A stretch of DNA of 64,000 nucleotides from an uncultured Chloroflexia bacterium (GCA_963703345.1 OY969814.1:1792001-1856000), one strand, 5' to 3'. Shown: positions 11,270 through 57,538, numbered from the stretch's first letter. Numbers and translations: made by a program. Notes: generated by a model not told the origin, from the sequence alone.

Positions 11270-12649
11270 GTGACAAGCCCCTATCGCCGGTTGCCCAGCG
11301 TCGAGCGCCTGCTGAGCGACGAGCGACTCAGCGGCTTCAGAGACGTCTACGCGCCGCACATCGTCGTCGAAATGGCGCGCGAGGAGCTGGAGCGCATCAG
11401 GGCGGCCATCGCCGGAGGCAAGGCAGCGCCGTCGTACGAGGAGATCGTCGCTTCGCTCGTCGACCGGCTGAAAGCGGCGACGACGCCCGGCCTGCGGCGC
11501 GTGATCAACGCAACGGGCGTAATCATCCACACCAACCTCGGCCGCGCGCCGCTTTCGGCGGAGGCGATGGCCGCCATGAGCGCCGTCAGCGGCGGCTACA
11601 GCAACCTTGAGTTCGATCTTGCGGAAGGCGAACGCAGCAACCGCCACGTCCACGTCGAATCGCTGCTCCGCCGGCTGACCGGTGCGGAAGCGGCGCTGGC
11701 GGTCAACAACAACGCCGCTGCCCTCCTCCTGGCGCTGTCGGCGCTCGCGCGTGAAAGAGAGGTCGTCATCTCCCGCGGCCAGCTCGTCGAGATCGGCGGC
11801 GGCTTTCGGATACCGGAGATCATGGCAGAGAGCGGCGCCCGCCTCGTCGAAGTGGGCACGACGAATCGCACCTACCTGCGCGACTACGAGGCCGCCATCA
11901 CGGAGAGGACGGCGGCCTTCCTGCACGTCCACACGAGCAACTTCCGCATGGTCGGCTTCACGGAGTCGGTATCGACGGCGGCGCTGGCGCGGCTGGCGCA
12001 CGAACGCGGGCTGCTGCTGCTGGACGATCCGGGCAGCGGCTGCCTGCTAGATACGACGCAGTTCGGCCTGGGCAAGGAGCCGACGCTCCAGGAGACCCTC
12101 GCGGCGGGTGCGGACCTGGTCTTCTCATCCGGCGACAAGCTGCTCGGCGGGCCGCAGGCGGGCATCGCGCTGGGCCGGCGCGAGCTCGTCGAGACGCTGA
12201 AGAAGCACCCGCTGGCGCGTTCGGGACGGCTGGACAAGGGCGCGATTGCGGCGCTGGCGGCGACGCTTCTGCATTATGTAAAGCAGGAGGCCACCGAGAA
12301 GGTGCCCGTCTGGCGGATGATCGCCCTGCCGGCAGCGGAGATCGAGGGGCGCGCGAAGGCGTGGGCGAAAGCGCTGGCGAAGGCGGCGCGCGTCGTCGAC
12401 GGCCGGTCGATGGTCGGCGGCGGCAGCTTGCCGGAGGAAAGCTTGCCGACGAAGCTGCTGGCGCTCGGCGGCGACTCGCTGGACGTCACGTCGCTTGCCC
12501 GACGGCTGCGGCTCGGCGATCCGCCGGTCGTTGCGCGAGTGGAACGCGATACGCTGCTCCTCGATCCGCGCACGGTCAACCCGAGCGAGGACGCGCAGGT
12601 CGTCGCCGCGCTGCAAACCGCGATACGTACTTCCCCAACGCCTGACTGA
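11270..12649 (+). CDS. selA: L-seryl-tRNA(Sec) selenium transferase
   Basis: 'VINATGVIIHTNLGRAPL', 'VNNNAAA', 'SRGQLVEIGGGFRIP', 'EVGTTNRT', 'SGDKLLGGPQAG'. Confidence 0.96.
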   Translation: MTSPYRRLPSVERLLSDERLSGFRDVYAPHIVVEMAREELERIRAAIAGGKAAPSYEEIVASLVDRLKAATTPGLRRVINATGVIIHTNLGRAPLSAEAMAAMSAVSGGYSNLEFDLAEGERSNRHVHVESLLRRLTGAEAALAVNNNAAALLLALSALAREREVVISRGQLVEIGGGFRIPEIMAESGARLVEVGTTNRTYLRDYEAAITERTAAFLHVHTSNFRMVGFTESVSTAALARLAHERGLLLLDDPGSGCLLDTTQFGLGKEPTLQETLAAGADLVFSSGDKLLGGPQAGIALGRRELVETLKKHPLARSGRLDKGAIAALAATLLHYVKQEATEKVPVWRMIALPAAEIEGRAKAWAKALAKAARVVDGRSMVGGGSLPEESLPTKLLALGGDSLDVTSLARRLRLGDPPVVARVERDTLLLDPRTVNPSEDAQVVAALQTAIRTSPTPD

Positions 12650-12723: not shown

Positions 12724-15192
12724 TCAGTGGTTGCCAAAGGGGTTAATCGGACAACCAGCCTCGTTCGCGGCCTCAAACATGTTCGTTGTCGCCGCATAGT
12801 CGCCGCTGTCGAACGCCGCTTGGAAGGCGGCAATTACCTCCGCCGGCGTATCGATTGCCGGTGGAGGAGAGGTGTAAGGGTTGGTGGCATTCAAGAGAGC
12901 CGCGACGGCCTGCCGGCCCAAGGCGCTCAAGCCACCGCCACCGTACCAAAGGACGTGAAGCAACGGAGGGTCTCCGGCAAACGCATTACGCCCAAACACG
13001 CGGTTGAAGGAATCTGACGGCCTATAGAGCGTCTCCAGCCAGGGCCAGGTCCATCGCCTCCAGAAGCCAAGCGAGCAACCGGTCACTCGTGAGGGTGTTG
13101 TGGCCGGCGTGGGCGTTGCCGTCTTCGTTGGTTTCGGCGTTACCGTTTGACACGGCGGTTTTGGCGTTGGCGTCGCCGTCTTCGTCTTCATCGCCGTCGG
13201 CGTAGATGTCTTCGTTGGTTTCGGCGTTGCCGTCTGACACGGCGGTTTTGGCGTTGGCGTCGCCGTCTTCGTCTTCGTCGGGGTCGGACTCGCCGTATCC
13301 GTCGGCGTCGGCGTAGCGGTATCCGTAGGCGTCTGAGTGGCAGTGTCGGTCGGCGTTGGCGTCCACGTGTCCGTCGGCGTGTTCGTCGGCGTGTTCGTCG
13401 GCGTGTTCGTCGGCGTGTTCGTCGGCGTGTTCGTCGGTGTGTTCGTCGGCGTATTCGTCGGCGTGTTCGTCGGCGTATTCGTCGGCGTGTCCGTCGGCGT
13501 GTTCGTCGGCGTGTTCGTGATCGTCGGCGTGTTGGTCGGCGTGATCGTCGGCGTGTCCGTCGGCGTGTTCGTCGGCGTGTTCGTGATCGTCGGTGTGTCC
13601 GTCGGCGTGTTCGTGATCGTCGGCGTGTTCGTCGGCGTGTTCGTGATCGTCGGCGTGTTGGTCGGCGTGATCGTCGGCGTGTTCGTCGGTGTGTTCGTCG
13701 GCGTGTTCGTGATCGTCGGCGTGTTGGTCGGCGTGATCGTCGGCGTGTTCGTCGGTGTAATCGTCGGCGTGTTCGTGATCGTCGGCGTGTTGGTCGGCGT
13801 GATCGTCGGCGTGTTCGTCGGTGTGTTCGTCGGCGTAATCGTCGGCGTGTTCGTGATCGTCGGCGTGTTGGTCGGCGTGATCGTCGGCGTGTTCGTCGGT
13901 GTGTTCGTCGGCGTAATCGTCGGCGTGTTCGTCGGCGTGTTCGTCGGCGTCGCTGTAGCGGTATTCGTCGGGGTGGGAGTAGGCAGGCAATTGTAGAAGT
14001 CAAGATCACTGCTGTTGCCGTCGGCCGCAACCGTCCGCTCGTAGCAGACACCATAGGGCAGATGCAAGCCGGTACCGCTGGAAGGCGTTGGGGCGCTCTG
14101 TATGCGACCGGGCTGCGCCGACAGGTCCTCGCAGATGGCGTAAGTGCCGGACGGCACGTTCTCGAAAGTGTAGACGCCCGTGTTGTCGGTGGTTGTTTCC
14201 CCCGCCAGCGTTTCGCCGGGAAGCTGCAGCAGCTTGATGGGCACGCCGGCGAGCGGCGAATTGATTCCGGCACTGCCGTCGCAGTTCTGATCGTCGTACT
14301 TGTGGCCGGAGAGGTTGACGCAGATGTCCGCCATCTCCAGCGATATCTCACTGTAGATGTCAGGAAGCGTCGAAGCGTCCTGGACGATACGCGTGTAGCC
14401 GGGGCTCTTGGCGATGTCCGTGAGAAGGGAGGTGTCAAGCTCGTCGGGGTTGCACGACATGGGATCGCAGGGCAGGTGATAGGCGCCGCATGTCGAGCTG
14501 CCGATGCCGACGGTGTAGACGGTGTCAGCGGCGGCGTGAAGGCCCGGGATGGCGTTCTCTGTGTCCGCTCGCCTCTGATGAGTCGCGTCGCAGGTTGTGC
14601 CGTAAGTAGGATCGCCGTCGGCGTAATTTCTGCCGTCTGAGAGGACGACGACGGCCTTGTAGGAGCCGTTAGGGCCGCCATGGACGTGCGCATTCAGGTC
14701 ATTCGTCGCCCTCGTGAGGGCGGGAGCGATGTAGGTGTCGGTTTGTGGCGGAGGATTGGTGATTCCGTTGACTGCCGCACGAATGGCGTCGGCGTCGCTG
14801 CTGAAAGGGATGACGAGATTGATGGGCGCCCCTCCGTCGAAAGTCATCACCTCGACGTGGTCGTTGCCCAGGCTGTGACCGGAGGGCCCGCCGGCAATCG
14901 CGTCGACAAGCGTTACCGCGGCTATCTTAGCCCAGTAAAGGCGGGTCTTTGGCGGGCTGCCGCTGTAGTTGGTGATCATGCTGCCTGTCCGGTCGATGAT
15001 GATGACCACGTCGAGGTCGGCCGGGACGAGACATTGAGCCGGCGGAGTCGCATCAACGACTCCCGCGGACTGCGACATGGTGGCCGCGCTGCCCCTGGCC
15101 GAGTTGACGATACATAAGGCGACAACCGCGGCAAGCACTATGATGAACGAGGGCACAACTAATCGAGCCCGGAGAAGCTTCTTGCGACTCAT
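12724..15192 (-). CDS. Secreted protein: vWA domain, SdrD/CnaB-like Ig domain, long Pro/Thr repeat linker, C-terminal 'GCSLGFW' domain
   Basis: Signal peptide; MIDAS-like 'IIIDRTGSM' and 'VVLSDGRN'; '[13 protein letters not shown]...[23 protein letters not shown]'; (TPTN/TPTI)n. Confidence 0.85.
13100..13980 (-). repeat. Coding tandem repeat (mainly 12/18-bp units) encoding a TPTN/TPTI linker
   Basis: gtcggcgtgttc / gtgatcgtcggcgtgtt units; duplicated '[15 protein letters not shown]' block. Confidence 0.92.
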
Positions 15193-15505: not shown

Positions 15506-16069
15506 GATCTGATCATCGCCGACACGGGCAACAACGTCGTCCGCTGGGTCCACGGCCCTTCCGGCCTGATCGGTACCCTTGCCGGCACGGGAACCGCCGG
15601 TTTCTCCGGCGACGGCGGCGTTGCCGTTCAGGCCAAGCTCAACGGCCCGGAGGCCCTGGCGTCCGATGGTTCCCTCGCTGTCCTCATCGCCGATACTCAG
15701 AACAACCGGCTGCGCCGCGTCACCTTCGGTGATGCCACGATCACCACCGTCGCCGGCGGCGGCAGCGGCTGCGATGCGAATCAGACGGCGCCCTACGACG
15801 GCTGCCCGGCGACGGACGCTGTCCTCGATCATCCAGCGGGAGTCGCTCTCGGAAGTTGCCAGACCTCGGATACCGGCAGTCAGGCTATCCGCGGAATCGA
15901 TTCGTGCACCGGGTTGCCCGTCGGCGGCTTCACCGGCTCGACAGGTTGCACATACGGCACGACGGCCACTATCGACGTTGTATTCATGCTCCTTCCTCTC
16001 GGGCTGGTCCTCAGCCGAAGGCGCATCAGATCCATGTTCGGACAGATTCGGAGGGTGAGCAAGCTATGA
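15506..16069 (+). pseudogene. 5'-truncated NHL-repeat surface protein with C-terminal TM anchor (not in ORF track)
   Basis: Hand translation: DLIIADTGNNVVRWV...LAGTGTAGFSGDGG...LNGPEALA...LIADTQNNRLRRV...ITTVAGGG...PVGG...VVFMLLPLGLVLSRRRIR; no start codon; TGA overlaps the next ATG (ATGA). Confidence 0.8.
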
Positions 16070-18072
16070 GCTTCGTCAGGCGCGGGGCCCGAACCGTCTT
16101 GGCGTTCGCAATCTCGGCAGCCGTCCTTGGTGCGGCCGCAAGCGCCCTAATGGCGGTATTCCCCGCATCGGGAAGGACGGCCGTCGCCACCACCCCCTAC
16201 CCTACGCCGGCTCTGAAGTGGGACGTGTCCATGTCGGACAAGATACCCACTCCCGCTATAACATGCCCGCAGCAGCCGCCGGGGGACAATGATGGAAACA
16301 TCGACCCGGGCGAGTCTCCCAACGTGACCAACGAGTTTTGGATTCAGCCGAACGGTGGTGTGGGCGGAGCTCAGCCCATGTTTGATAGAGCAAATGTCAT
16401 ATGGATGACGGGGCCGCTTCTTGGGAGCGATGTGACGGCGCCGCAAGACGGCTTGGCCCCCAAGCGGGTCAATACGGTGGGCGCCAAGGTGGGCATGGTC
16501 AGCATTCAGATGCAGTCGAACATGTTCACGGGAACGTTGACCACAAACAACATCGATGATATCGCCAGCGCCGCAGACTCCACGCTTAACGGCCAGCCGC
16601 CGCGCTGTGGAGCCGACGTCACCGGCGACGGCCGTCCGGACACGCTTGCTCTTACGGACTCCTTCGAGCTTTGGAACGCCGCCTTCCACACGGACGGCAG
16701 CGACCCCATCATCGAGTACGGGGAGGCTCAGGCGCCGGACAGTGCATTTCCGTCCGGCTGCGACGTGAGTGGCAGTACTCCGAATCATGCGTGCGCTCCC
16801 CGGGCCATACGCGGACTACCAAGGCCCATACTGGCCCTCGAGACCGCCATGGGCTTGACGTCGGCTTCCAGGGTGAGTCGCGCCTACGGTATCGCCAAGC
16901 TTCCCATCGTCGGCGGCATCACCAGTAATCTCGACGTCAACTTCCTGGTCTACAGCCTGCATAACAAAGGGACAAACGGCTACTTGAGTGTCACCCTCAT
17001 CCAGTATCCGGGCCTGCCCTCAGCAGATCCAACCAACGCGAACTACAACCCGCTGTCGCAGAGCGTCCAGACCTGTCCTCCCTATTGGAGCTCGGCCACC
17101 GTCTACGGCGTCACTTCCAGCCCTGATTTCGATGAGGACGGAGTGTCTGACCTAGCCGTGACGTCGGAGATCAACCGCCTAGTTCAGCCGCAAACGGTGA
17201 CGGGGAAGTCCTACGACTACTACATCGAGACCTCCATGGCCGCCGACTACGACGGCGATGGGATTCCCGCCTATGCCGACCGCTGTCGCACCGATCCCGC
17301 TTCGGGCAGCGCCACCAGCGACAGCGACGGCGACGGCCTATCGGGGACCTGCGACACGAACGGCCAGAACAACACTCCAGCGAGTGGGAGCTGGAAGAGT
17401 AAGCCGCCCTGGGACGACAACCAGGACGTGGACCATGACGGGATCCTGAACTCTGTGGACAACTGCCCGACCGCCTGGAACCCCGACCAGAAGGACACAG
17501 ACGGCGACAGCGTGGGGGATGCCTGTGACCCTGCCCCCACAATCCCGGGCGACGGGCACGGCTACGCTAGCCCGGCCCCCGGCATGTTCGTCCGCTATGT
17601 CGACATCTGCCGGGATCCGTGGACTGTCGGCCAGCCTGAGCTGAGCGGCAGCGGCGACCCCGGTCGACAGTGCTTGAAACAAGACGGCGTGATCACGAAC
17701 TGGCAGGACTCCAATAATGACGGCGTGCCCGACTACCTAGACATGAGATCCTTAACCCCACCCGGCCCCCTTCTGGCTGACTGCCACAGCGATAGCGACC
17801 ACGACGGATTCGTGGATGCAATGGAGGCGGCGCCCACTAATGTGGAGCCCTGTCCGGCATTCGGGTTTGCCAAAGCCAGCGACCCACTCGATGCCTCCTC
17901 TCCAGGAGGTGGGGTAGCTGTTGGCGGGATAGCGGAGCCACCCACCGAATCAGGCTCCTACGCTGAACATGGTTCCGCGCTTCCCTTCAGTGTCCTCGCC
18001 GCGCTCATGCTTCTCGCCGCCGTCGCCGTCCTCATCGCGTTCGGAGACTGGTACCGTCGCCGGCACAACTGA
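16066..18072 (+). CDS. Secreted/surface protein with thrombospondin type-3-like Ca-binding repeats and a C-terminal anchor
   Basis: Signal peptide from ATG 16066; 'DVDHDGILNSVDNCPTAWNPDQKDTDGDSVGDACD'; 'VGGIAEP' + TM + RRRH tail. Confidence 0.82.
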   Translation: MSFVRRGARTVLAFAISAAVLGAAASALMAVFPASGRTAVATTPYPTPALKWDVSMSDKIPTPAITCPQQPPGDNDGNIDPGESPNVTNEFWIQPNGGVGGAQPMFDRANVIWMTGPLLGSDVTAPQDGLAPKRVNTVGAKVGMVSIQMQSNMFTGTLTTNNIDDIASAADSTLNGQPPRCGADVTGDGRPDTLALTDSFELWNAAFHTDGSDPIIEYGEAQAPDSAFPSGCDVSGSTPNHACAPRAIRGLPRPILALETAMGLTSASRVSRAYGIAKLPIVGGITSNLDVNFLVYSLHNKGTNGYLSVTLIQYPGLPSADPTNANYNPLSQSVQTCPPYWSSATVYGVTSSPDFDEDGVSDLAVTSEINRLVQPQTVTGKSYDYYIETSMAADYDGDGIPAYADRCRTDPASGSATSDSDGDGLSGTCDTNGQNNTPASGSWKSKPPWDDNQDVDHDGILNSVDNCPTAWNPDQKDTDGDSVGDACDPAPTIPGDGHGYASPAPGMFVRYVDICRDPWTVGQPELSGSGDPGRQCLKQDGVITNWQDSNNDGVPDYLDMRSLTPPGPLLADCHSDSDHDGFVDAMEAAPTNVEPCPAFGFAKASDPLDASSPGGGVAVGGIAEPPTESGSYAEHGSALPFSVLAALMLLAAVAVLIAFGDWYRRRHN

Positions 18073-18169: not shown

Positions 18170-18424
18170 ATGGGCTTCGTCGCGACGGAGACAGTGCGGA
18201 CGGCTCTTGGCGAGTTCGGCAGGGTTTACGAGTGTCTCACGCCGTACGAGCGGAAGGAACTCGTACGGCTCGTCCTGCGCCGCGTCGAGGTGAACGACCG
18301 ACAGATCGCGATGGAACTGTACCCCTTCGACTTGCCACAAACGGAGGTGGCCCAGAGCAGTTTACGCTCTGAGCCACCAAACTGGCTCCCCGAGCAGGAC
18401 TCGAACCTGCAACCTAGCGGTTAA
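18170..18424 (+). pseudogene. C-terminal remnant of a large serine recombinase, reading into the tRNA-derived att site
   Basis: 'LTPYERKELVRLVLRRVEV' resembles serine-integrase C-termini; ends 'WLPEQDSNLQPSG*', the antisense translation of the tRNA 3' half; no catalytic domain. Confidence 0.6.
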
Positions 18425-18451
18425 TCCGCCTCGGGCGGACCCGCTCTACCG
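18383..18451 (-). repeat. Degenerate tRNA-Asn copy (D-loop to CCA) with hairpin substitution
   Basis: 18383-18424 = 18704-18745 (42 bp) and 18440-18451 = 18752-18763; cagccg is replaced by tccgcctcgggcgga. Confidence 0.9.
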
Positions 18452-18690
18452 CTTAGATGGTCAGCAAGCAAGCGCCGCCCGCGACCGGTCTTCAGTTGGC
18501 GCTCACGGCCCATCGCCTCGCCGCGGCTGGCGAAATGCTCGGAGTAGACTAGATGCCAGGGTCCCCGGCCACGCGTCCAGCCAGCCTCGTCGTTCTGATG
18601 CCGCGCCACACGGCGGTCGATCTCCGCTGTCGAGCCGACGTAGAGGCGTCCCTGCGCATTCCTAAGCACGTAGACGGAGAATCTTGTCAC
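18421..18690 (-). CDS. Stand-alone GIY-YIG nuclease (about 89 aa)
   Basis: 'VYVL...LYVGST...RRVARH...WT...PWHLVYSE....EAMGRERQLK'; GTG start 13 nt after the tRNA-Asn CCA. Confidence 0.88.
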   Translation of the reverse strand: MTRFSVYVLRNAQGRLYVGSTAEIDRRVARHQNDEAGWTRGRGPWHLVYSEHFASRGEAMGRERQLKTGRGRRLLADHLSGRAGPPEAD

Positions 18691-18703
18691 GAGAGGTTGA
18701 GAT

Positions 18704-18779
18704 TGGCTCCCCGAGCAGGACTCGAACCTGCAACCTAGCGGTTAACAGCCGCCCGCTCTACCGATTGAGCTATCGGGGA
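18704..18779 (-). tRNA. tRNA-Asn (GTT)
   Basis: TCCCCGATAGCTCAATCGGTAGAGCGGGCGGCT-GTT-AACCGCTAGGTTGCAGGTTCGAGTCCTGCTCGGGGAGCCA. Confidence 0.96.
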
Positions 18780-18780
18780 G

Positions 18781-19089
18781 CACCCGATATCCATCTATAT
18801 TCCGCTGGCCATCGAGCCACGTCTAGACCTAGCGGTTAATCCGCCTCCGGCGGACCCGCTCTACCGATTGAGCTATCGGGGAGCACCCGATATCCATCTA
18901 TATTCCGCTGGCCATCGAGCCACGTCTAGACCTAGCGGTTAATCCGCCTCCGGCGGACCCGCTCTACCGATTGAGCTATCGGGGAGCACCCGATATCCAT
19001 CTATATTCCGCTGGCCATCGAGCCACGTCTAGACCTAGCGGTTAATCCGCCTCCGGCGGACCCGCTCTACCGATTGAGCTATCGGGGAG
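18781..19089 (-). repeat. Three identical 103-bp tandem units, each a hairpin-interrupted tRNA-Asn 5' fragment plus a 47-nt spacer
   Basis: Units 18781-18883, 18884-18986, 18987-19089. Confidence 0.93.
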
Positions 19090-19107
19090 CACTTCGGCCC
19101 TCTGGCG

Positions 19108-19181
19108 TGGCTGCCGAGCCAGGACTCGAACCTGGACTAAGGGATCCAAAGTCCCTGGTGCTACCATTACACCACTCGGCA
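19108..19181 (-). tRNA. tRNA-Gln (TTG)
   Basis: TGCCGAGTGGTGTAATGGTAGCACCAGGGACT-TTG-GATCCCTTAGTCCAGGTTCGAGTCCTGGCTCGGCAGCCA. Confidence 0.95.
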
Positions 19182-19244
19182 GCGGATGAGTCTATCCGCA
19201 CATCAATGAAGGCGGGTTCTCCCGCCTTCCGCCTGATCGTGAAC

Positions 19245-26876: not shown

Positions 26877-26913
26877 TGCGTCCGCCTGGGGCGGGTCCGC
26901 CTCGGCGGACGCA
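26877..26913. repeat. Tandem pair of TCCGCC/GGCGG(A) mini-palindromes
   Basis: tgcg-tccgcctggggcggg-tccgcctcggcgga-cgca; same arms as the hairpins in the tRNA fragments. Confidence 0.6.
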
Positions 26914-57369: not shown

Positions 57370-57408
57370 CAAAGAGAAAAGGTCGTCCCGTTGCGGTCCG
57401 ACCTTTCG
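57370..57408 (-). terminator. Riboswitch expression-platform terminator
   Basis: Minus strand aaaggtcg...cgaccttt followed by tctctttg. Confidence 0.65.
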
Positions 57409-57525
57409 CACGCCTACGAGGTTAGCTGACGGGTTAGGGCTGAAAGGTTGCCCCTCCCGGTAACCCGGGATTAACCCCTCTTCTGGTTCCCCCGTCCCCG
57501 AACAAGCTCGGGCGTTCGGCGGTTA
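57402..57525 (-). ncRNA. Cyclic di-AMP (ydaO/yuaA) riboswitch
   Basis: Minus strand CGCCGAAC...GGGGAACC...GGGGTTAATC...CCCTAACCCGTCAGCTAACCTCGTAGGC matches hallmark ydaO segments. Confidence 0.88.
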
Positions 57526-57538
57526 GGTTGTCAATGTC

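Follow-up and report, generated by a model that had tools for sequence, protein, structure and literature searches.

How does a bacterium come to keep its only intact gene for asparagine transfer RNA (tRNA-Asn) among broken, hairpin-bearing copies of the same gene, next to the gene for a minimal nuclease? The question is raised by a 64,000-nucleotide (nt) stretch of DNA from an uncultured Chloroflexia bacterium (GCA_963703345.1 OY969814.1:1792001-1856000), which we call the window and in which positions are counted from the first letter. The genome to which it belongs (G000) is a single contig of 2.28 Mb, has a G+C content of 64% and is 95.85% complete; to judge from gene content and the names given to homologues, it is probably one of the Dehalococcoidia. 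An earlier note on the window had proposed that a GIY-YIG nuclease gene and the tRNA-Asn fragments around it form a minimal selfish element. We conclude with considerable confidence that positions 18425-19060 are a real mobile insertion, and of this we are much surer than of how its nuclease cuts.

The insertion and its empty alleles

The locus lies on the minus strand, in an operon that reads tRNA-Gly, tRNA-Leu, tRNA-Gln(TTG) (19108-19181), a 19-nt leader, three exact 103-nt units, tRNA-Asn(GTT), 13 nt, an 89-codon open reading frame (ORF) and a 3' copy of tRNA-Asn. The insertion itself is 636 nt long (18425-19060), runs from hairpin to hairpin and, as judged from empty-allele contigs and reconstruction of the flanks, replaces nt 29-34 (CGGCTG) of the resident tRNA-Asn gene. 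Its left homology arm, the resident 5' half of that gene (nt 1-28; 19061-19088), abuts hairpin plug 1 (TCCGCC-GGA-GGCGGA; 19046-19060), which forms the left end of the insertion and is followed by a copy of tRNA-Asn nt 35-47 (19033-19045) and a 47-nt spacer (18986-19032). Each unit thus consists of tRNA-Asn nt 1-28, the hairpin, nt 35-47 and the spacer. Units 2 and 3 (18883-18985 and 18780-18882, with hairpins at 18943-18957 and 18840-18854) are exact copies of 103 nt, and the whole is detected as a repeat family of 135 nt, 100% identical, in three units at 103-nt spacing (18752-19092). Then come the intact tRNA-Asn(GTT), the only one in the genome (18704-18779), and the nuclease gene (18421-18690). 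Within the latter lies an element-borne copy of tRNA-Asn nt 14-28 (18440-18454; 14/15 identical), followed by hairpin plug 4 (TCCGCC-CGA-GGCGGA; 18425-18439), the right end of the insertion, and by the right homology arm, which is the resident 3' half of the gene (nt 35-76; 18383-18424). The 3' tRNA-Asn copy therefore spans 18383-18454, part of it element-borne and part of it the resident half, and the nuclease ORF overlaps this plugged copy and ends on the TAA of its anticodon loop.

In the following particulars the description in the earlier note holds throughout, the overlap of the ORF with the plugged copy and the origin of the 47-nt spacer being additions to it: the order of features from tRNA-Gln to the 3' tRNA copy; the replacement of nt 29-34 by TCCGCC-NNN-GGCGGA in all four broken copies; the loop GGA in the three array hairpins and CGA in the downstream copy; and the position of the live gene inside the rearranged block, the resident copy after tRNA-Gln being the one split by a hairpin.

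Empty alleles of the locus exist. We compared eight of the 24 listed sequencing runs with the locus, and contigs of runs X2 and X4, from two other studies, join 18424 to 19061 through the six missing letters; the resident flanks plus those six letters give the carried intact tRNA-Asn letter for letter. All eight congeners have a single plain tRNA-Asn at a locus free of the hairpin (at two of the eight, a contig ends within the locus), the flank beyond 18383-18424 also follows a single intact tRNA-Asn in G003, G007 and G008, and each of the nine genus genomes has exactly one intact tRNA-Asn anticodon arm. Occupied and empty alleles are hence both found at a fixed, conserved site. Because of the empty-allele contigs and the plain congener loci, we read 18425-19060 as a 636-nt insertion that splits the resident gene (nt 1-28 / 35-76) and carries the sole working copy.

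Identical units or hairpins could in principle come from mis-assembly, an explanation that gains from the 100% identity of the units and from there being no array-spanning single read or contig to hand. Read depth in run X1, however, is 11.9 on the unit contig, 3.9 on the nuclease gene and 3.4 on the downstream flank, about three times the single-copy level; as X1 is possibly the source sample, this depth checks the assembly and does not represent a second population. Arrays of two to four slightly diverged units also occur at other loci (L037, L039, L051, L054, L062 and L078), and we find mis-assembly scarcely credible. Two familiar kinds of insertion were rejected as well. A group I or group II intron is contradicted by the lack of any intron match at Rfam gathering scores, tRNA being the only Rfam match at the locus, and by the six tRNA bases missing from the split copy. 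An integrase-driven tRNA island would call for a recombinase gene, of which a Pfam scan found none inside 18425-19060; the GIY-YIG gene is the only gene-like ORF there, and a neighbouring gene remnant lies outside the element and is common to empty-site congeners.

The predicted protein is a single GIY-YIG domain of 89 amino acids (PF01541, 53.1 bits against a cut-off of 22.6, E=4e-14), with no second Pfam domain and no NCBIfam match above cut-off. Residues Y7, Y17, G19, R27, H31 and E63 are invariant in 45 sequences, and we take them to play catalytic-type roles as in I-TevI and UvrC. The predicted structure (pLDDT 84) is nearest to the solved folds of UPF0213 (1zg2, E=1e-5) and Slx1. Its C-terminal tail is predicted with low confidence and is encoded by tRNA sequence: the last residues, GRAGPPEAD, are translated from tRNA nt 17-28 and hairpin 4, and the stop codon is tRNA nt 36-38. 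Among 48 homologues chosen by protein alone, 25 end in GRA[GV]PPx[AV]D, a C-terminus translated from the D-arm and the hairpin, and their stop codon falls in the anticodon loop.

Recurrence of the layout and types of hairpin

An exact-pattern scan of metagenomes recovered 39 loci (33 distinct) with the same plug at the same nucleotide of tRNA-Asn. A GIY-YIG gene is present in 28 of these and an intact anticodon arm in 27; 15 have an upstream plugged 5' copy, and five have two to four such copies. Three layouts can be distinguished, namely a live tRNA, the gene and a plugged 3' part; a plugged 5' part, the gene, a duplicated leader and a live tRNA; and the arrangement seen in the window, with both ends plugged, which is found in full at seven loci (six distinct). 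The gene itself is part of tandem units at L020 (three times 334 nt), L033, L046 and L068. ARAGORN labels the plugged copies at L032, L038, L047, L048 and L069 as tRNA-Ser(TGA), tRNA-Cys(GCA), tRNA-Stop(TTA) or unknown, and plugged copies are a likely source of false tRNA annotations.

A profile of the nuclease matches 6502 clusters at E<=1e-10, which include other small GIY-YIG families, and 178 of 401 genomes of the class at the same threshold (one unpublished genome, G045, is counted in some genome-wide tallies only). For a class-wide view we took the 29 best loci besides that of G000 and 60 further down the list, of which 88 were usable; L130, which has no GIY-YIG match, was left out. A tRNA gene lies within 500 nt at 41 of the 44 loci with the highest protein scores, at 4 of the 8 in the middle and at 2 of the 36 with low scores, and tRNA fragments are seen at 39, 2 and 1 of them, respectively. 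On the protein tree, 42/44 proteins of the window's branch are lodged at tRNA genes, against 0/19 Ssn-like proteins and 2/20 others, the branch itself being weakly supported. The Ssn-like set is a 19-protein branch (SH-aLRT 99; four loci with the published SRM pattern) that serves as a stand-in for the cd10448 clade and has the Ssn-type C-terminal motif. The targeted tRNAs include Asn, Ile, Ala, Val, Arg, Met, Ser and Leu. In the phylum the exact Asn plug turns up only here and there, in 3/401 genomes, and genome contigs hold at least one related locus (L001, in a Phycisphaerales metagenome-assembled genome), where a frameshifted gene lies directly 3' of tRNA-Asn and the downstream part is masked.

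G000 itself holds two further cases. A second cassette (L162; G000:C1:1147894-1148970) has tRNA-Ser(GCT) between two GIY-YIG genes, together with partial tRNA-Ser copies bearing a 24-nt double hairpin in the T-loop, and has a related locus in G008 (L100). In the 16S-23S spacer (L163; G000:C1:1263520-1263580), a tRNA-Ile 5' fragment with the hairpin in place of the anticodon arm directly precedes an intact tRNA-Ile, with no nuclease gene. The selfish element that the earlier note had proposed is supported by empty alleles, by the same layout at dozens of unrelated loci and by homologous nucleases tied to tRNA genes and hairpins; homologues of 18421-18690 stand beside tRNA fragments in other genomes and at other tRNAs, with the plug nucleotide constant across the 39 loci.

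The hairpin is over-represented, and it also occurs outside tRNA genes. There are four copies in the window against 0.06 expected. In G000, 14 hairpins have a loop of 3 nt, whereas any other loop length between 0 and 11 is represented by 0-5, and a reversed control gives 3. Hairpin-rich genomes (10-98 copies) make up 35/401 of the class, compared with 3/401 for a control pattern. Dispersed REP-like copies in G000 sit in a longer imperfect palindrome at G000:C1:1818881, 2042075, 2074448, 2074576, 2137080 and 2156782, the first of which corresponds to the window near 26882. In the RNase P RNA gene (L161; G000:C1:1654540-1655080), double hairpins occur in P12 and P19 and another in a downstream stem. 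These are polymorphic across the genus and family, whose members have P12 and P19 tipped by the same three hairpin types, single or double, while the tips of G007 are plain.

Three hairpin types are also found at one tRNA site: the stem that plugs the Asn anticodon arm may be TCCGCC, TCCTTC or TCCCGA. As a rule each of the three goes with nucleases of its own, and the type shifts with nuclease lineage even between neighbours within a single locus (L040, L043). The TCCGCC type is not anticodon-specific: in Asn, Arg and Val genes it plugs anticodon, T- and D-loops. Where the T-loop holds a second plug, this is of the type found at that locus (TCCGCC in 12 loci, TCCTTC in L076 and L079). Stems are constant and loops are free; the 15 different loops at one site led us to reject the idea that the loop of single plugs mirrors the replaced bases. 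A local template switch was considered because the right arm of the hairpin, GGCGG, equals tRNA nt 27-31, and was rejected as a general cause given the same hairpin in Arg, Val, the T-loop and RNase P and unrelated hairpins at the same Asn site. On a tree of 103 proteins, which left out L093, L099, L118, L143 and L158 (truncated or <50 bits), hairpin class, assigned by eye, changes 8 times against a shuffled mean of 32 and minimum of 28 (62 rows); tRNA type changes 13 times against 27.6, and hairpin class within Asn loci 5 times against 11.7. The hairpin therefore looks like a mobile partner and not an arbitrary lesion, and its sequence appears broadly to follow the nuclease lineage.

These patterns bear on two rival explanations. 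The first is classical homing, in which the enzyme would cut the naive anticodon arm in double-stranded DNA like SegB of phages T4 and T6, the hairpin would be an immunity mark and low expression would spare the live copy. The fixed insertion point with its 6-nt loss and the invariant active-site residues fit such a cycle, as does the leaderless start 9-29 nt past CCA in most loci examined. According to the available text of the two papers, SegB, which is held at a low level, cleaves tRNA genes, its own phage's among them (PMC2330249), and tandem amplification requires its activity (PMC13096335). The live tRNA in the element is nevertheless itself a naive target, and the protein is a bare 89-amino-acid catalytic domain with no DNA-binding extension. 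An immunity mark, moreover, need be neither a palindrome with a conserved stem and free loop nor variable by nuclease lineage, and it need not occur in RNase P. We regard homing of this kind as unlikely, though it deserves to be kept in view.

The second takes the hairpins for REP-like repeats that accumulate in any redundant tRNA fragment, being spread by a different enzyme or through errors of replication; the GIY-YIG gene would have come in once, with a tRNA-targeting island, and would have no role in plugging. The hairpin-rich genomes mostly lack a close nuclease, a probable recombinase-island remnant adjoins the 3' tRNA half, and 11 of the 39 plugged loci have no GIY-YIG match (several of these are at a contig edge or hold gene remnants). 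The island remnant is, however, also present in the cassette-less congeners G003 and G007, and no Y1 (HUH) transposase is found in G000 (0 PF01797 matches), where the palindrome is over-represented genome-wide. The change of hairpin type with nuclease lineage, at one tRNA site and inside single loci, and the lodging of an entire nuclease clade at tRNA genes are likewise hard to reconcile with a passive gene, so that this account strikes us as rather improbable.

The duplicated units and a possible mechanism

The spacer holds a record of where the units came from. Its first 21 nt are identical to the 3' end of tRNA-Gln at 15/21 positions (4/5000 shuffles as good), and its last 26 nt resemble the Gln-Asn leaders, likewise 26 nt long, of G001/G004 (16/26 identical; 4/20000 shuffles) and of G005 (15/26), with the decayed Gln tail and the Asn-side leader meeting through a shared AGGT. 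The G001/G004 leader is the best match among 18 leaders compared; the resident leader (19089-19107; 19 nt, near in length to the 19-21 nt of G002, G003, G006, G007 and G008) is unlike the spacer. Because the spacer matches a congener leader and not the resident one, the block seems to have been imported from a related lineage. The unit is thus an old duplication of the segment from the tRNA-Gln T-arm to tRNA-Asn nt 47, with another lineage of the genus as its likely source, and was recently copied three times.

Live copies and fragments can have separate origins. The live tRNA-Asn at L053:1440-1900 is not the same in sequence as the plugged fragment upstream of it, and at L045 a spacer related to that of L053 is found with a different live copy. 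In two Chloroflexota genomes (L194 in G723, L195 in G667), runs of full-length plugged tRNA-Asn copies with differing loops precede one live copy, each plugged copy lying behind a TTGACA-17-TAAAAT-like site (identified by eye), and one of the two genomes has no nuclease gene left nearby.

The earlier note had offered, as its alternative, that the array yields guide or decoy RNAs. In a fuller form, transcription of the array would give tRNA-like RNAs of ~103 nt to serve the nuclease as guides, regulators or decoys, or else the enzyme would be an RNase directed at tRNA. Array and gene do lie in one operon behind a sigma-70-like promoter site (19493-19465, minus strand), and the decay of the spacer has no counterpart in the parts of the units that derive from tRNA, which are free of mutations. 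The units are identical, however, and the spacer, itself decayed flanking DNA, contributes no diversity. It has no promoter-like site, and the transcribed strand has no terminator. Units at other loci range from 59 to 109 nt and end anywhere from tRNA nt 42 to 53, and in 24/39 loci no upstream 5' copy was seen. Folding of the unit against shuffles gives a z no better than -1.9, nothing but tRNA matches Rfam, and SsnA, the comparable nuclease treated below, does not bind RNA according to the available text (PMC11893778). Coverage in four metatranscriptome runs falls on tRNA-like stretches only, mostly of other organisms, with none over the nuclease gene body, and is uninformative on expression. 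An RNA-guided, CRISPR-like array was rejected, the spacers being identical and derived from flanking DNA. The array reads as a scar of duplicated DNA rather than a guide locus, a guide-RNA role is unlikely, and we give the RNA-based account as a whole very little credence.

The account that we favour, with moderate confidence, is that a minimal GIY-YIG nickase partnered with the hairpin plugs tRNA arms, that survivors keep a duplicate and that host recombination, acting through the tRNA halves, moves the block. The nuclease would bind its own hairpin in single-stranded or extruded DNA and nick nearby, as Ssn enzymes do, and would probably also nick the stem-loops of tRNA genes where these are exposed in single-stranded form; a copy with the hairpin would then act as repair template, and the loop would be swapped for the hairpin. 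Such plugging would be harmless in the variable RNase P helices P12 and P19 and fatal to a tRNA gene. Because a plugged tRNA gene is dead, only chromosomes with a duplicated gene would survive, and each round would leave a plugged dead copy beside a live one. The block with its plugged ends could be copied into a naive allele by gene conversion, with the tRNA halves of 28 and 42 nt as arms, and unequal recombination would recently have expanded one plugged unit to three identical copies.

Several observations weigh against this account. At 28 and 42 nt, the homology arms are short for recombination of the RecA type. The nuclease gene begins with a GTG 13 nt 3' of the tRNA CCA, with no purine-rich ribosome-binding stretch and at a position shifted relative to homologues. 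In a quick tree the window's protein, which has a TCCGCC hairpin, sits among TCCTTC-associated proteins, although its placement with the TCCGCC/Asn proteins also passes the AU test (p-AU 0.70). Hairpins of the CCCGA kind fall at two separate points of the tree, hairpin and nuclease are coupled loosely, short of one hairpin per clade, and physical linkage alone would give few hairpin changes. Close nucleases are only weakly enriched in hairpin-rich genomes (7/35 against 33/366 others, p=0.07). None of five hairpin-rich genomes examined has a tRNA-lodged GIY-YIG gene, and the dispersed hairpins may therefore owe their spread to some other enzyme or to a gene since lost. Finally, the phage and plasmid collections gave distant GIY-YIG proteins only (<=42% identity), and no vehicle was seen in them.

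A wider claim, which we advance tentatively as a possibility that falls short of being probable, is that these loci represent a new class of mobile element. In such a class, a GIY-YIG nickase of 80-90 amino acids and a cognate 15-20 nt hairpin would form a lock-and-key pair, the hairpin would be swapped into the tips of structured-RNA stem-loops, the gene would ride forced tRNA duplications with neither transposase nor integrase, and lineages would differ in their hairpins, which would make for a set of very small, orthogonal nucleases, each specific to its hairpin. If this is true, many "putative endonuclease" genes of uncultured bacteria would be the smallest selfish elements, each no more than a nuclease domain with a hairpin, and would live in essential RNA genes although they neither splice nor have an integrase. 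Such elements would account for many of the pseudo-tRNAs, unexpected anticodon assignments and hairpins on RNase P helices that assemblies contain, and the Ssn idea of hairpin-specific cutting of single-stranded DNA would reach a second GIY-YIG clade with several natural hairpin-enzyme pairs. The question is testable at this locus, since the ends of the element are exactly placed, empty alleles exist in nature and a single site takes three types of hairpin.

Neighbouring genes and known systems

Antisense into the 3' half of the resident tRNA is an 84-amino-acid ORF remnant (18170-18424, plus strand) ending in LPEQDSNLQPSG. It has no Pfam match, its counterparts in G003 and G007 are longer and about 90% identical, and we take it to resemble the C-terminus of tRNA-integrating serine recombinases. 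Because it is present in these cassette-less congeners, this island remnant is older than the cassette and separate from it. Downstream of the tRNA, the window also encodes two large secreted-looking proteins, one with VWA and SdrD-B domains and a long TPT repeat (12724-15192, minus strand) and one with a thrombospondin type 3 repeat (15856-18072, plus strand). A c-di-AMP riboswitch (RF00379) lies at 57398-57531 on the minus strand. The gene at 11270-12649 (plus strand) is, by sequence likeness, probably a selenocysteine synthase, SelA, and G000 carries tRNA-SeC.

Genomic islands and prophages that target tRNA genes insert into the gene and leave one intact copy and displaced fragments, as is seen here. 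The present element differs from them in having no integrase or cargo, in replacing 6 nt and in carrying a hairpin at both junction copies; moreover, both tRNA halves stay and a whole tRNA is brought in. Fungal mitochondria have small, GC-rich, mobile double-hairpin elements, and also endonuclease ORFs that bring a new end for the gene they invade and thereby repair it. In these features they recall this locus, but they are organellar, have protein-coding targets and involve larger enzymes. The available text of PMC3787672 contains no passage on mobile ORFs.

In REP/RAYT systems (REPtrons) and IS200/IS605 elements, dispersed short palindromes flank the gene of a small hairpin-recognising enzyme, according to the available text of PMC11893778, and this is similar to the arrangement described here. 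Their enzyme, however, is a Y1 HUH transposase able to rejoin DNA, of which none was found in G000. A GIY-YIG enzyme, being a hydrolase, would need host repair.

GIY-YIG insertions in rRNA genes of the Candidate Phyla Radiation (CPR) resemble the window's element in that they are not introns and lie in structured-RNA genes; most are at the top or base of stem-loops, and the authors find them unlike ordinary homing (PMC11270868). They differ in being confined to rRNA, with no host-gene duplication, hairpin partner or mechanism given in the available text, and "tRNA", "hairpin" and "palindrom" do not appear anywhere in the main text (PMC11270868). The CPR insertions may be the same phenomenon in another gene.

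SegB offers the closest parallel in target. In the parts of the two papers available to us, it is a free-standing GIY-YIG gene within a tRNA operon, is co-transcribed with tRNAs and moves itself and neighbouring tRNA genes (PMC2330249, PMC13096335); it cuts within tRNA genes (PMC2330249) and drives tandem amplification through host recombination (PMC13096335). It is, however, a phage protein with a proposed C-terminal DNA-binding part that recognises a T-arm motif in double-stranded DNA, and no split tRNA gene or partner hairpin is described there (PMC2330249, PMC13096335). We rejected membership in the Seg-type homing enzymes given the absence of a binding domain and the intact naive target kept in the occupied allele.

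The closest parallel in enzyme and partner is Ssn. As described in the available text of PMC11893778, SsnA (cd10448) is a single-domain GIY-YIG protein of about 90 amino acids that cuts single-stranded DNA adjoining its own hairpin, and its gene is flanked by that short hairpin repeat, whose sequence varies between homologues and of which further copies are scattered through genomes; the authors compare this arrangement with that of an insertion sequence. The window's protein, by contrast, is on a separate branch and is 35% identical to an SRM-flanked protein. The SRM pattern has 0 matches on either strand of 18301-19200, although it is a weak pattern that matches just 4/19 Ssn-like loci, and it matches 2/44 tRNA-lodged loci. 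None of the 19 Ssn-like loci is near a tRNA, whereas here the hairpin replaces loops of essential RNAs and is coding. "tRNA" and "CCGCC" are absent from the main text of the Ssn paper, its supplements not being covered (PMC11893778). Membership in Ssn was rejected on the separate clade and the lack of SRM at the locus.

The open literature, from which subscription papers are largely missing, yielded no account of tRNA duplicates that are plugged by a hairpin and accompanied by a minimal GIY-YIG gene, which agrees with the earlier note's statement that it knew of no named system with this layout. The locus is real and recurrent, and its family is apparently undescribed. From what the available text of the cited papers describes, it stands nearest to Ssn/SRM in the size of its enzyme and in its hairpin partner, and nearest to SegB in its target and its amplification.

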